12,775 nt of DNA from an uncultured Planctomycetota bacterium (GTDB lineage: Bacteria > Planctomycetota > Planctomycetia > Pirellulales > Lacipirellulaceae). Positions 1-3,000 of this stretch are shown here, one piece after another. The position numbers were made by a program. Where the stretch lies: positions 1 through 12,775 of the forward strand of contig CAVRBU010000014.1 of assembly GCA_963719315.1 (NCBI GenBank), given 5' to 3'. Each line of letters opens with the position of its first letter. Positions within the stretch are counted from its first letter, which is position 1.

Positions 1-3000
1 GCCGCCGGGGGCGTAGCCCGCGGCCACTCAGCGTGTTGGCGAGGCTGGACCTGTTGCGGCGGCGACGCGTGTGATGTCGCCGCTACGCGGCTGGGACCCT
101 TGTCCTATCAGGCGTCCGTGGGCTGGCGTCCACGGCTAATTGCTGTCGTCGCTTGCGACTGTCCGATGGCAGATTGCGGCGCAATGGTGACTCTGGCGCA
201 TCAGCCGCGCAGCGGCGAGATGGCTTAGCCGGGTGGCGTAAGCCCCCGGAAACGTGTCGCAATGAGATCCCTCAAGCCGCGCAGCGGCGACATCGCGCAC
301 GATTGTGGCGTTCGCGGAACGAGCGTGTCGCCGCTGCGCGGCTGGGGCTCTTGTCGTCTCTGGTTCCGTGGGCTCGCGCCCACGGCTAAGCGCTGCCGTC
401 GCTGCGCGACTAATTCCAGCGGCGACCTCAGTCCCAGAGATATCGCGCGTCGTACTCGACTTCGTGTTTTACTGCAATTTGTCGCATTTCTCGTCGCCGC
501 GCGATTATTCGCTTGTGTTTGCTACGGGTACTGCTAGGATGGCGCACGCGGCGGTTAAATCCGACCCAACGGCCCCGGCCAAAAAAAGCTAACGACAAGG
601 CGCCACGATTCTCGAAACCCGGCTGCTCAGGCAGTGTCCGGGGCAAGGCTCATGGCGCCTTTTTTTGTTGCTACACTCACCCCCAGCTTGCAAACCCTCG
701 GCGGATGCAACATGACGACTAACAGGTTCGTTGCGTTAACTCTTGCGGCATTCTTTTGCACGGGCTGCGCCGGCGCGCCTGGAGTGACACCTTCGGCAGC
801 GGCGCGAACACGTTCGACATCGAGTTCGTCACGATCGGCAATCCGGGCAACGCGGCCGACACGACGGGCAGCCCGAATCCGGCTCTGTGCCTTACGATTA
901 TCGCATTGGCAAATTTGAAATCTCCGAGCAGATGATCGACAAGGCCAACACGCTGGGCCACCTCGACATCACCAAAGTCACTCGCGGTGCCGACAAGCCG
1001 GCAACGTCGGTGAGTTGGAACGAAGCGGCCCGGTTTGTGAACTGGCTCAACGTCAGCACAGGCCACATGCCGGCGTATAAGTTCGGTACCCAGCCGGGAG
1101 GTGCCGGCTACAACGCCAACACCGATATTGAACTGTGGACACCTAGCGACGCCGGCTACGATCCGAACAATTTGTACCGCAACAGTTTGGCGTGGTATTT
1201 TCTGCCTAGCGTCGATGAGTGGTACAAAGCGGCGTATTACGATCCGACGAGCGGTGTCTATTACGACTACCCCACTGGCAGCGACACGGCGCCCACGCCC
1301 GTCGCCAGCGGAACAGCGGCGGGTACGGCCGTGTATCTACAGTCTCAAGCTACAGGTCCTGCGGATATTACGCTTGCCGGGGGCCTGAGTCCCAACGGGA
1401 CAATGGCCCAGGGAGGTAACGCCTATGAATGGGAAGAGACGGAGCGAGATTTGGTGAACGATTCAGGTTCGTCTGAGCGCGGCGTTCGCGGTGGCTATTG
1501 GGGCTTCAACTCTAACATCTTGTTGCTGTCGTCGGTTCGGAGCAGCGCCGGCCCGACAAACGGGAACAGCAGCCTCGGCTTTGGTTTCCGCGTCGCAAGT
1601 ATTGCGATCCCTGAGCCAAGCACGCTGCTGCTGGTAGCGCTGGCCGGCATGGGTCTGTTGGGGCGGCGGCGACGGCGAGTGTGATGCCGCCGCTACGCGG
1701 CTGGTAGCTTGTTCTATCCAGTTTCCGTGGGCTGACGCCCACGGCTAGGCGCTGCCGCCGCTGCGCGGCTGTCCATTGGTAACTGGCGCCGCAATCGTGG
1801 CGGGGTGGTAGAGCGCCTCTACGAATCCGGCGCACATCAGCCGCTGGCTAATAATCGTTTATCGCTGCGCGGCTGTTCGATGGCAGGCTGCGCCGCAATT
1901 GTCACTGAGGCGTATCAGCCGCGCAGCGGCGAGATCACTTAGCCGTGGGCGTTCGCCCACGGAAGAAGGGTCGCAATTGAGTTGGCAAGCCGCGCAGCGG
2001 CGACATCAAGCACGATCGTAGTGTTTGCGGAACGAACGTGTCGCCGCTGCGCGGCTGGGGCTCTTGTCGACTCTGGTTCCGTGGGCTCGCGCCCACAGCT
2101 AAATGATTTCGCCGCTGCGCGGCTTCGATGCCGTGCCGCCTATTTTCCGTGGGCTGGCGCCCACGGCTAAGCGCTGCCGTCGCTGCGCGACTATCAAATC
2201 GACGAACGTCACTGCGCGGCTAATTTATTGGCGACATCAATCCCAGAGATACCGCGCGTCGTACTCCACCTCGTGCCTAGCCAGCAATTCGAGTAACTCC
2301 GCCTGGAAATCCCGCTCGGCATGGTGGCTCTTTTGAGCGCGAATGTACTCGCGAACAGAATCCACTTGCGACTTGCTCACCGTGAATGCGGCGTAGCCGT
2401 CCTGCCAGCCGAACTTGGCCAGATCGGGTCTCGATTCGTGGACCCACTTGGAGGAGTTGGCTTTGATTTCCCGCAGCGCGTCGGAAACGGCGATCTTGGG
2501 CGGTAGGATGGCCAGGATATGCACGTGGTCCAGCATGCCGTTGATTTCCACGCAAACGCCTCCGATGCCGCGAACGATGCCGGAGATGTATTTGTGAAGT
2601 TCATCCTCGATGGCCGAGGTGATGAAGCGACCGCGATTCTTGGTGCTGAATACGATGTGGTAAAACAATATCATGTAGGTTCCGGCCATGATTTGTTCGC
2701 CCGTGTGTGACGTCGCCGCTGCGCGGCTGGTACGTGTTTTATCTCATTTCCGTGGGCTGGCGCCCACGGCTAAGCGCTGTCGCCGCTTCGCGGCTGCGAT
2801 CAGACCGAGCGGCCGATGGCGCTGCGACCGTCACGCGGCGGTAGAGTAGGTCGATGAAATTGGCCAACAGCTCGGCCTCGCCGCTTTCCAGGATGACACT
2901 CACCTGCCGCCAGACGTCGCGCTTGGCGTTCATGGCCTCGGCCGCGGCCACGATTCCCTCCGGCGTCATCTGGCCGCCGGTGCCGAAGCGGCTATAGAGC

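Follow-up and report, generated by a model that had tools for sequence, protein, structure and literature searches.

The systems closest to the one described here are built on Y1 transposases. In the REPtron, where REP and REPIN repeats accompany a RAYT enzyme (PMC8266576, PMC3479197, PMC3733652), a low-copy Y1 gene stands between inverted hairpins that have a 5′ tetranucleotide as foot, enzymes each specific for one repeat coexist in one genome, and there are tandem arrays as well as gene-less inverted doublets with their feet outside. All these characters recur here. The differences are that the present enzyme belongs to class 1 (the IS200 side) and RAYTs to class 2, that it is a predicted dimer where E. 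coli TnpA-REP is a monomer, that the foot is NTAG (TTAG, ATAG or GTAG) rather than a fixed GTAG, and that the unit has two additional GNA mini-hairpins at fixed distances. Because the monomeric E. coli enzyme cannot obviously coordinate two ends, the spread of REP doublets has been unsettled. The IS200/IS605 elements IS608 and ISDra2 share with our system the fold, the HuH/Y1 catalytic set and a guide-like tetranucleotide 5′ of a hairpin. They differ in having distinct left and right ends, where those found here are inverted and alike.

The enzyme itself has been classified before. Quentin et al. 2018 (PMC6006769) listed the TnpA-Y1 subclass 1.2, with few, divergent copies per genome, as REP ‘no’ and without typical terminal structures; their Table S1 lacks a row for subclass 1.2, and none of our five foot-plus-stem 10-mers occurs in it. 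Subclass 1.2 is probably the ‘IS200 Group 3’ of Bertels et al. 2017 (PMC5581495), a group with no duplicates, absence from plasmids and abundant flanking 16-mers; in the portions of that paper compared here 16-mers were counted and not described, whereas here a conserved three-hairpin inverted flank is matched to RF01687. The latter family (Acido-Lenti-1) has been catalogued as a bacterial small RNA, with no function assigned, since its description by Weinberg et al. in 2010 (PMC2864571). Our reading, to which we give a probability of about three in four, is that Acido-Lenti-1 is not an sRNA gene, but the reverse complement of part of the predicted single-stranded DNA recognition site of the subclass 1.2 enzyme. 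It is most likely a DNA repeat that brackets one particular family of small Y1 transposase genes in several phyla, and that spreads without the gene as well.

The window is the whole stretch of DNA analysed, 12,775 nucleotides from a genome of the Lacipirellulaceae (contig C14). An Rfam search finds eight RF01687 matches within 116–2795, the number given for the first 2.8 kb by the genome-wide survey's note. Six exceed the 37-bit gathering cut-off, and with scores up to 47 bits the copies are true members of the Rfam family. Across the genome we obtain at least 14 copies over the cut-off, at least 21 at E<1e-3 (the same 14 and 21 as in the note) and at least 22 at E<=0.01, all lower bounds with 150 of 1152 candidates scored; Rfam and a structural descriptor together give about 25–30 repeat units, where REP and REPIN families run to hundreds.

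Acido-Lenti-1 is two hairpins of a three-hairpin unit of ~85 nt (A–NTAG–B–A), read on the opposite strand. The unit runs from a small hairpin A1 through a linker to the NTAG foot, the larger hairpin B, a spacer and a second small hairpin A2. The foot is NTAG in 153 of 177 units, 35 of these being GTAG (the REP foot is GT[AG]G), where the AG was required by the descriptor itself, and the distance from the A1 loop to B is 17 nt in 188 of 233. Stems, foot and spacing are conserved while the spacers diverge. The RF01687 model takes in two of the three hairpins, read from the complement of the NTAG/GNA strand, and does not detect a branched subtype, a subtype with a CCCAGG stem and the Bacteroidota forms. 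Shuffled DNA gave two full descriptor matches in 1.5 Mb; a first, loose descriptor had returned 199 matches in the genome that were mainly noise, and was later tightened. An AG preceding A1, from which a CT cut at the end of the doublet would follow, was considered as a universal feature and rejected, being true of one subtype only. We claim no exact unit end and no target site, since conservation fades just outside A1 and near-identical sets of copies reach the ends of larger elements.

The Y1 gene of the window lies on the minus strand. It had been placed at 2237–2674; its homologues start at 2689, so that the gene is 2237–2689, encoding 150 amino acids. Upstream is a unit A1-TTAG-B-A2 at 2710–2795 (minus strand, the sense strand of the gene), which overlaps the last codons and stop of a conserved HTH gene (2739–3347, minus). 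The reverse complement of its A1-TTAG-B is the Rfam match 2750–2795(+), the only one of the eight that reaches into an ORF taken as a gene. Downstream lies a tandem array A-B-A-B-A with a period of 68 nt (2039–2192, minus; Rfam matches 2079–2124 and 2147–2192), oriented like the upstream unit and thus non-canonical. The next unit, which is inverted (1917–2008, plus; Rfam match 1917–1962 on the minus strand), has the orientation that is canonical for a downstream partner. A further unit (1685–1770, minus; Rfam match 1725–1770) begins at the stop codon of an FGE-sulfatase-like PEP-CTERM gene (887–1684, plus) that separates two repeat clusters; the 5′ part of this gene lies in other frames. The second cluster includes a remnant of the 3′ end of another Y1 gene (421–500, minus, the left limit of the decayed part being approximate), of which 421–466 is 89% identical to 2230–2275. 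It is adjoined by a unit at 326–411 (minus; Rfam match 366–411), and 273–411 is 88% identical to 1986–2124; the block 155–466 as a whole is a duplicate of 1869–2275. There follow a slightly decayed inverted unit (203–294, plus; Rfam match 203–249 on the minus strand) and a decayed one (72–160, minus; Rfam match 116–160, under the cut-off), which follows the stop codon of a gene end similar to that of the PEP-CTERM gene. No tnpB was seen in the window.

The window Y1 is of TnpA-Y1 subclass 1.2, an assignment made by the motif signatures in Table 1 of Quentin et al. (PMC6006769). It has the HuH motif as H55-V56-H57, WQ at 95–96, the catalytic Y115 within YxxxQxxHH and a C-terminal tail of ~30 amino acids, matching the DH[IV]H, WQ, YxxxQxxHH, length of ~148 residues and 30-residue tail of the subclass. 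All three motifs of the window protein are shared by its homologues (YxxxQxxHH in 111 of 112, DH[IV]H in 95 and WQ in every one); the catalytic residues are invariant across 105 sequences, and E131, L136 and D144 of the C-terminal part nearly so. One locus with an internal stop (L040) was excluded from protein alignments and descriptor counts, L208 gave no gene, and a quick tree supplied labels and clades and nothing else. The protein had been called RAYT-like. It scores 22.9 bits against the RAYT model NF047646 (cut-off 80) and 77.4 bits against the IS200 model NF033573 (cut-off 55), the RAYT motif YxxxNP is present in none of 112 homologues, and the closest solved structures are the TnpA of ISDra2 and IS608 (Foldseek E = 1.5e-9 to ISDra2 TnpA versus 1.6e-5 to TnpA-REP); the description is not supported. 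The subclass 1.2 enzyme is predicted to be a dimer, the modelled homodimer scoring 0.65 against 0.00 for the best control, where the mark used was reached by 20 of 30 solved pairs and 1 of 23 solved single chains. Similar complexes have been solved, and the prediction may echo the known TnpA dimers. The genome has four subclass 1.2 genes, of which the other three are 44–46% identical to the window protein.

On which strand is the element read? On the NTAG strand the A loops are GNA in 187 and GNNA in 31 of 311, with AAC or AAA instead of GNA in a sizeable subtype (41 of 311). Mini-hairpins of the GNA/GNNA kind are much more stable as DNA than as RNA, and are poorly bound by SSB (PMC13037366). 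For the hairpin closest to the gene, the loop is GN(N)A on the upstream side at 45 of 67 loci and its complement TN(N)C on the downstream side at 48 of 71, compared with 54 GN(N)A and 61 TN(N)C among 803 distant hairpins. Mismatched stem pairs are G-T rather than A-C by 13 to 3, and this together with the GNA triloops favours the strand opposite to that of Rfam. Nearest-neighbour folding energies for RNA and DNA did not separate the strands. These observations bear on whether Acido-Lenti-1 could be a functional RNA after all, either a trans-acting sRNA or cis-acting hairpins controlling the Y1 gene and neighbouring mRNAs. Compensatory changes in the stems are real, GNRA is common among the B loops of the opposite strand (50 of 115 B loops are GNRA, which suits RNA as well), doublets between co-directional genes would be transcribed, and a 2026 preprint proposes a regulatory role downstream of protease genes. 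Yet the genomic position is not conserved, and the motif turns up in either orientation, tandemly arrayed and dozens of times per genome, as was already so in the 2010 seed with its 69- and 74-nt spacing. Moreover the loops and mismatches favour the non-Rfam strand, Weinberg et al. (PMC2864571) graded the motif ‘y’ rather than ‘Y’ as an RNA, and there is no promoter-like site in window positions 1–3000, although this is weak evidence in Planctomycetota. We consider a functional RNA very improbable.

Evidence for the DNA-repeat reading comes from the association with the Y1 gene. In 80 cross-phylum loci selected by protein, 38 of 45 over-threshold Rfam matches lie within 350 nt of the gene, at a density 30-fold that further out; they come from only 22 of the loci. 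The structural descriptor is positive in 135 of 205 flank windows but in 5 of 180 control windows 1.2 kb away. By locus it is positive at 84 of 108, where Quentin et al. listed REP ‘no’, with a canonical inverted pair at 48 under the strict form, and at 40 of 45 in a second set, five loci of which had been used before; of 79 cross-phylum loci, 20 gave no match, and many of these are from Bacteroidota whose hairpin B has decayed. At 29 loci of the family, the descriptor is positive at 25 and the other four were recognized by eye. The system had been called planctomycete, but over-threshold matches adjoin the gene in records of six phyla. Within this genome the element is present at all four subclass 1.2 genes and at none of seven other Y1 genes. 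The fourth gene (C3:132777–133229), held to be bare, has an inverted pair just downstream (C3:132615–132721) of a subtype that Rfam misses. The C2 gene does have its reported copies, of a branched-loop subtype seen by the descriptor but not among the Rfam matches listed for the genome. Two copies do lie beside the C3:130191 gene, both upstream rather than bracketing it.

Repeat and enzyme also vary together. Core identity between upstream and downstream units is 0.92 at the same locus and 0.65 between loci, and the Mantel rho is 0.29 over 78 loci (without L078, identical to L013) and 0.59 within one family, where P values are overstated by the non-independence of kin. A distinct unit subtype goes with each enzyme clade, that of the ‘fourth’ gene included. 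For the family, our tables reproduce RF01687 in 103 of 120 Lacipirellulaceae genomes and the Y1 in 90 of 120, where repeat counts in relatives are lower bounds with 46 or 37 candidates scored. Both are present in 87 genomes, the gene alone in 3, the repeat alone in 16 and neither in 14, so that 14 of the 17 genomes without the repeat also lack the Y1 (at least 11 had been claimed); that count compares two tables, with 10 Y1-negative genomes identified by elimination. In a phylum-wide sample the corresponding numbers are 21, 5, 11 and 113. The survey's proposal of a DNA repeat belonging to this Y1 family is supported by position, orientation, spacing, co-variation, co-occurrence and polymorphic doublets.

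Inverted doublets and tandem arrays also occur without the gene, dispersed over genomes, and may be present or absent at orthologous sites. The inverted doublets noted at C20 13786-/13956+, C4 540824-/540969+ and C3 364798-/364934+ are all real. The first lies between genes for PFOR-like alpha and beta subunits, both below NCBIfam cut-offs, and the second between gcvPA and gcvPB, over the cut-off. Across 12 genomes the PFOR site has one doublet, one full cassette and ten cases without either (two relatives with the genes on separate contigs were excluded). Across 20 genomes the gcvP site has four doublets of two subtypes, three empty sites and 13 others (20 of 23 loci resolved). Among sequencing runs, none of RNA was listed as containing this DNA, and four DNA runs had a small share of it; three repeat-to-repeat joints in short contigs from sequencing runs turned out to be mis-mappings among copies, one being the C20 doublet itself.

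Are the units simply binding sites that spread passively, by capture in inverted-repeat MITEs, tandem slippage and recombination? In each of the near-identical multi-copy sets of G165, G259, G080, G085 and G192 the copies have additional flanking sequence in common, and in four of the five also inverted termini; we therefore credit these recent bursts to other elements. Mobilisation by this Y1, as the note had it, is something we infer, and the near-identical copies inspected are passengers in other elements. Passive spread is consistent too with what looks like a target duplication in L275 and L301, with many copies in genomes that have no intact subclass 1.2 gene (G116, a single contig with 19 copies, G133, G137 and G259), with the duplicated block of the window, and with the many unrelated repeats gathered in the gcvP and PFOR gaps. 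Against it, the PFOR and gcvP doublets of this genome, G071 and G067 have by eye no extra inverted termini, the repeat tracks the gene in the phylum sample with an odds ratio of 43, and stems, foot and spacing are kept while spacers diverge. We think it unlikely that passive processes are the main route.

A somewhat stronger case, possible but well short of even odds, can be made that the gene and two inverted units are a slow autonomous IS200-like transposon, with doublets that are mainly deletion relics of former cassettes and not separately mobilised REPINs. G074 carries the entire cassette at the PFOR position that a doublet occupies in this genome; the 29 family loci lie in 23 flanking contexts, and of the 21 relatives whose sequence continues past the HTH gene 20 have no Y1 gene there. 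Same-clade paralogues of 78–82% identity occupy different loci, G192 has two 99%-identical gene ends, the window contains a Y1 remnant, and the predicted dimer would suit such an element. Yet, where IS200/IS605 elements have near-identical multiple copies, none of 75 within-genome pairs of subclass 1.2 genes reaches 85% nucleotide identity; the G192 ends are the one exception to the lack of near-identical copies, and stop at a terminus shared by many gene-less copies. Unlike IS200/IS605 genes, these are almost absent from plasmids and phages: among 72,556 plasmid records the Y1 matches 2, each longer than 600 kb, and it matches none from phages. Those collections may contain few hosts from these phyla. 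Doublets also outnumber genes, and some contexts are common to several relatives. The ends of IS200/IS605 elements are located on one strand, in contrast to the inverted ends of the window type.

On the reading of a recognition site for the enzyme, the GNA-capped hairpins would fold on one strand when the DNA becomes single-stranded, as at the replication fork for IS608 and ISDra2. The enzyme, probably as a dimer, would bind hairpin B together with the A hairpins at their fixed spacing, and NTAG would direct Y115 to the place of the nick, for which CT or CA, the sites of TnpA-REP, are the simplest candidates. Doublets, and rarely the whole cassette, could then be copied or moved by strand transfer. 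The system would operate like a REPtron with its REPINs, yet on an IS200-side enzyme. Any effect as RNA would be secondary; doublets within the PFOR and gcvP operons would be transcribed. We suggest more tentatively, as a possibility that we would not yet bet on, a second, independently derived REPIN-type system, in which a dimeric IS200-side enzyme reads a three-hairpin, GNA-capped ruler, could hold both inverted ends, and so excise whole doublets or cassettes and reinsert them.

How new is this? In the literature searches made, no paper links RF01687 to Y1 genes; a GTAG family of Di Nocera 2013 may overlap with this repeat. The new result is a flanking REP-like element for subclass 1.2 enzymes. 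It would keep a DNA repeat from being annotated wrongly as regulatory RNA, a reading found in the 2026 preprint, and it gives biochemists candidate enzyme–substrate pairs, four of them within this genome. A dimeric enzyme with inverted ends makes the spread of REP doublets testable. If the more tentative proposal is true, IS200 transposons and monomeric RAYTs would be linked by a living intermediate, and the movement of REPINs would have its first tractable model.

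Repeat finding and BLAST reveal that the repeat unit is larger than the Rfam model of Acido-Lenti-1 (RF01687), extending over ~85 nt with three hairpins. On the strand that Rfam does not use, the order is A1 (a small hairpin), a linker whose last four nucleotides are NTAG, hairpin B, a spacer that varies, and a further small hairpin, A2. The Rfam model corresponds to the A1-NTAG-B part in reverse complement. The spacing is tight: 188 of 233 elements have 17 nt between the A1 loop and B, and most have 26-30 nt between B and the A2 loop. The units are arranged either as inverted doublets with their feet outward, or as tandem arrays with a common A hairpin, such as that at 2039-2192 of the window, with a period of 68 nt. 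Tandem spacings of 69 and 74 nt, and dozens of copies from a single assembly, are already visible in the 2010 seed of RF01687, in the available text of its source (PMC2864571).

An Rfam scan of the window gives eight RF01687 matches between 116 and 2795, six of which exceed the cut-off. With 150 of 1152 candidates scored, the whole genome has at least 14 copies over the cut-off and at least 21 at E<1e-3, and the copies lie where the genome-wide survey's note had put them. The segment at 155-466 mostly duplicates 1869-2275, and contains a remnant of the 3′ end of a Y1 gene. Two further structures are unrelated to the three-hairpin unit: an inverted pair of 22 nt at 3783-3844, whose foot is GTAG, and a long hairpin at 6325-6405, the source of spurious miRNA matches.

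The Y1 gene lies on the minus strand at 2237-2689 and encodes 150 amino acids. The protein passes the IS200 model (77.4 bits, cut-off 55) and fails the RAYT model (22.9 bits, cut-off 80). YxxxQxxHH is present in 111 of 112 collected homologues and the RAYT motif YxxxNP in none of the 112, so the label 'RAYT-like' is not supported, and the enzyme is placed in subclass 1.2, on the IS200 side. The DHVH, WQ and YxxxQxxHH motifs, the length and the C-terminal tail all agree with the description of that subclass in the available part of Quentin 2018 (PMC6006769), where Table 1 enters 'no' under REP. H55, H57, W95, Q96, Y115, H122 and H123 are invariant across 105 sequences. The nearest folds to the AlphaFold model (pLDDT 95.5) are the TnpA proteins of ISDra2 and IS608 (E 1.5e-9), with TnpA-REP more distant (1.6e-5). 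A homodimer was predicted with a score of 0.65 against 0.00 for the best control (pLDDT 87, with 98% agreement of contacts between runs); 20 of 30 solved pairs reached this mark, as did 1 of 23 single chains, and since like dimers are already solved the score indicates likeness only. TnpA-REP of E. coli is described as a monomer in the available text of PMC3479197. Among 75 within-genome pairs of Y1 genes in 12 genomes, none reaches 85% nucleotide identity and four lie at 75-85%. Matches were found in two plasmid records, each >600 kb, and in no phage record. The 'IS200 Group 3' of Bertels 2017 (PMC5581495) is described as free of duplicates and absent from plasmids, with 16-mers abundant in its flanks, and we infer that it is the same family as subclass 1.2.

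How closely is the repeat tied to this gene? We picked 80 loci with the protein as sole criterion (the best 80 among at least 591 matches) and scanned all of them with Rfam. Of 45 over-threshold RF01687 matches among these loci, 38 are no more than 350 nt from the Y1 gene, at 22 loci in records of six phyla, and their density near the gene is 30 times that farther away. They peak on the plus strand 44-61 nt past the stop, and on the minus strand 53-93 nt ahead of the start. A structural descriptor that never required loop sequence was positive in 135 of 205 flank windows, compared with 5 of 180 windows 1.2 kb off. It was positive at 84 of 108 loci, with the canonical inverted pair at 48, and at 40 of 45 in an additional set (five loci repeated from the earlier one); it was negative at 20 of 79 cross-phylum loci. 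Many Bacteroidota records retain the two A hairpins but have a decayed hairpin B. The system that had been called planctomycete spans several phyla. Records titled Klebsiella and Heliomicrobium (L049, L072, L046, L057) have cassettes of the usual form, which cluster with verrucomicrobial and acidobacterial cassettes, and their labels may be wrong. At three loci (L081, L115, L116) the ORFs next downstream of Y1 have N-termini like those of type I restriction-modification or RhuM-like genes, a hint that these loci may lie in defence islands. In a Flavobacterium record the Y1 gene is followed, after ~150 nt, by an over-threshold match to Flavo-1 (RF01705), likewise an orphan Rfam 'sRNA' (L111:3609-3668, minus strand); Flavo-1 may also be a REP-type repeat.

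Within this genome an element stands beside all four subclass 1.2 genes, including C3:132777-133229 on contig C3, which had been thought free of copies, and beside none of seven other Y1 genes. Each of the four has a separate repeat subtype. That of C3:130191 is carried by the 13 family (Lacipirellulaceae) genes nearest this paralogue, and that of the window by seven of the eight nearest the window gene; a branched subtype is confined among family loci to the clade of the paralogue on contig C2, a group that is itself mixed. Core identity is 0.92 between upstream and downstream elements of the same locus and 0.65 between loci, and protein similarity correlates with element similarity with rho 0.29 overall and 0.59 inside the family. 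The survey's tallies of 103 (motif) and 90 (Y1 gene) of 120 family genomes were reproduced; taken as descriptive because related genomes are not independent, 87 have both, 3 the gene without the motif, 16 the motif without the gene and 14 lack the two, and the corresponding counts for 150 genomes evenly spread over Planctomycetota are 21, 5, 11 and 113.

Comparison of sites reveals polymorphism. At the PFOR-like gene gap in 12 genomes, the present genome has a gene-less doublet, a relative (G074) carries the full cassette, gene included, and in the other ten there is no doublet or cassette. Between gcvPA and gcvPB (20 of 23 loci resolved) there are doublets in four genomes, of two subtypes (one by eye only); the genes abut in three and other sequence is found in 13. 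Y1 is absent after the window's HTH gene in 20 of 21 relatives with sequence there; in the remaining relative a cassette is present and belongs to a different subtype. The 29 family Y1 loci occupy 23 contexts, with neighbors common within four small groups. Such site polymorphism and varied contexts are typical of mobile DNA and unlike a conserved sRNA gene.

Near-identical multi-copy sets were inspected in five genomes (G165, G259, G080, G085, G192). In each of them the copies have extra sequence in common outside the unit; four of the five also show inverted termini, and L275 and L301 apparent target duplications, so we credit these bursts to other elements. Passive spread inside other MITEs may contribute, and is partly compatible with the preferred reading. 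Doublets are cargo of several unrelated inverted-repeat MITE families (L241-L249 in G165; L272-L276 in G080; L260-L271 in G259; L293, L298 and L301 in G259/G192), and two copies in G080 sit within the loop of another B-type hairpin. In G192 two gene ends, 99% identical and at contig breaks, terminate at the terminus common to the multi-copy elements. The doublets of G133 are diverged, as here. An intact subclass 1.2 gene is absent from G116 (a single contig with 19 copies), G133, G137 and G259 despite many copies. A slow autonomous transposon that leaves doublets as relics may also contribute, and is again partly compatible with that reading.

Acido-Lenti-1 has reportedly been linked to group II introns. 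A tie to a transposase was not found in the openly accessible literature searched, as far as the available texts extend (including PMC6006769, PMC3733652, PMC2864571, PMC5581495, PMC8266576, PMC3479197, PMC13037366 and 2026 preprints).

Does the unit work as DNA, and on which strand? When the small hairpin nearest the gene is chosen by position alone, its loop is GN(N)A on the upstream side at 45 of 67 loci and the complement, TN(N)C, on the downstream side at 48 of 71; among 803 distant hairpins the two loop types number 54 and 61. Among 311 A loops read on the NTAG strand, 218 have GNA or GNNA, 41 have AAC or AAA and 3 have TN(N)C. Mini-hairpins of the GNA/GNNA type, with a sheared G-A pair, are far less stable in RNA than in DNA and are poorly bound by SSB, according to the available text of PMC13037366. 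Mismatches in the B stem, on the same strand, are G-T in 13 cases, A-C in 3 and other in 7; GNRA accounts for 50 of 115 B loops, a result that favors neither DNA nor RNA. The NTAG foot occupies the position of GTAG in REP and of the guides in IS608. For TnpA-REP, CT is chosen by AG and CA by TG (PMC8266576, available text).

Several genes in the window are broken over frames, at 700-890 (start of a PEP-CTERM gene), 7200-7750 (end of a solute-binding protein) and 10266-12168 (Hsp70-like pieces), which points to decay or to indel errors from long-read sequencing. A solitary HicB-like antitoxin gene lies at 3452-3751 on the plus strand. A phage-integrase-family gene (9080-9979, minus strand) is followed, within 7648-9979, by frame-broken ORFs that we take to resemble an IS91-type transposase. 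Elsewhere in the genome, class-2-type Y1 genes (C6:95784-96299 and C4:425990-426601) are flanked by a different short palindrome, which resembles the subclass 2.2 REPs in the available part of Quentin Table S1 (PMC6006769). It is found within the gcvPA coding sequence here and in several relatives (L134, L139, L144, L146, L151, L152).

The anatomy, orientation and spacing of the units, their match to gene clades and their polymorphism are direct observations, and the tie between repeat and subclass 1.2 enzyme is strong. By analogy with IS608, ISDra2 and TnpA-REP, units would fold on transient single-stranded DNA and be bound by the enzyme; Y115 would make a guide-directed nick, and strand transfer would follow. 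Given the bursts inside other elements and the repeat-rich genomes lacking the gene, movement of the doublets by the enzyme is argued from these analogies, and we consider it reasonably probable. The REPtron-like reading of the survey was mostly right and its observation real, with the partner now placed in IS200-side subclass 1.2, three hairpins in the unit, the opposite strand as the working one and several phyla. The mobile-DNA pattern at the compared sites and the tie to the Y1 gene uphold its view of Acido-Lenti-1 as a DNA repeat rather than an sRNA, and we put at about 85% the probability that the unit is the DNA recognition site of subclass 1.2 enzymes.
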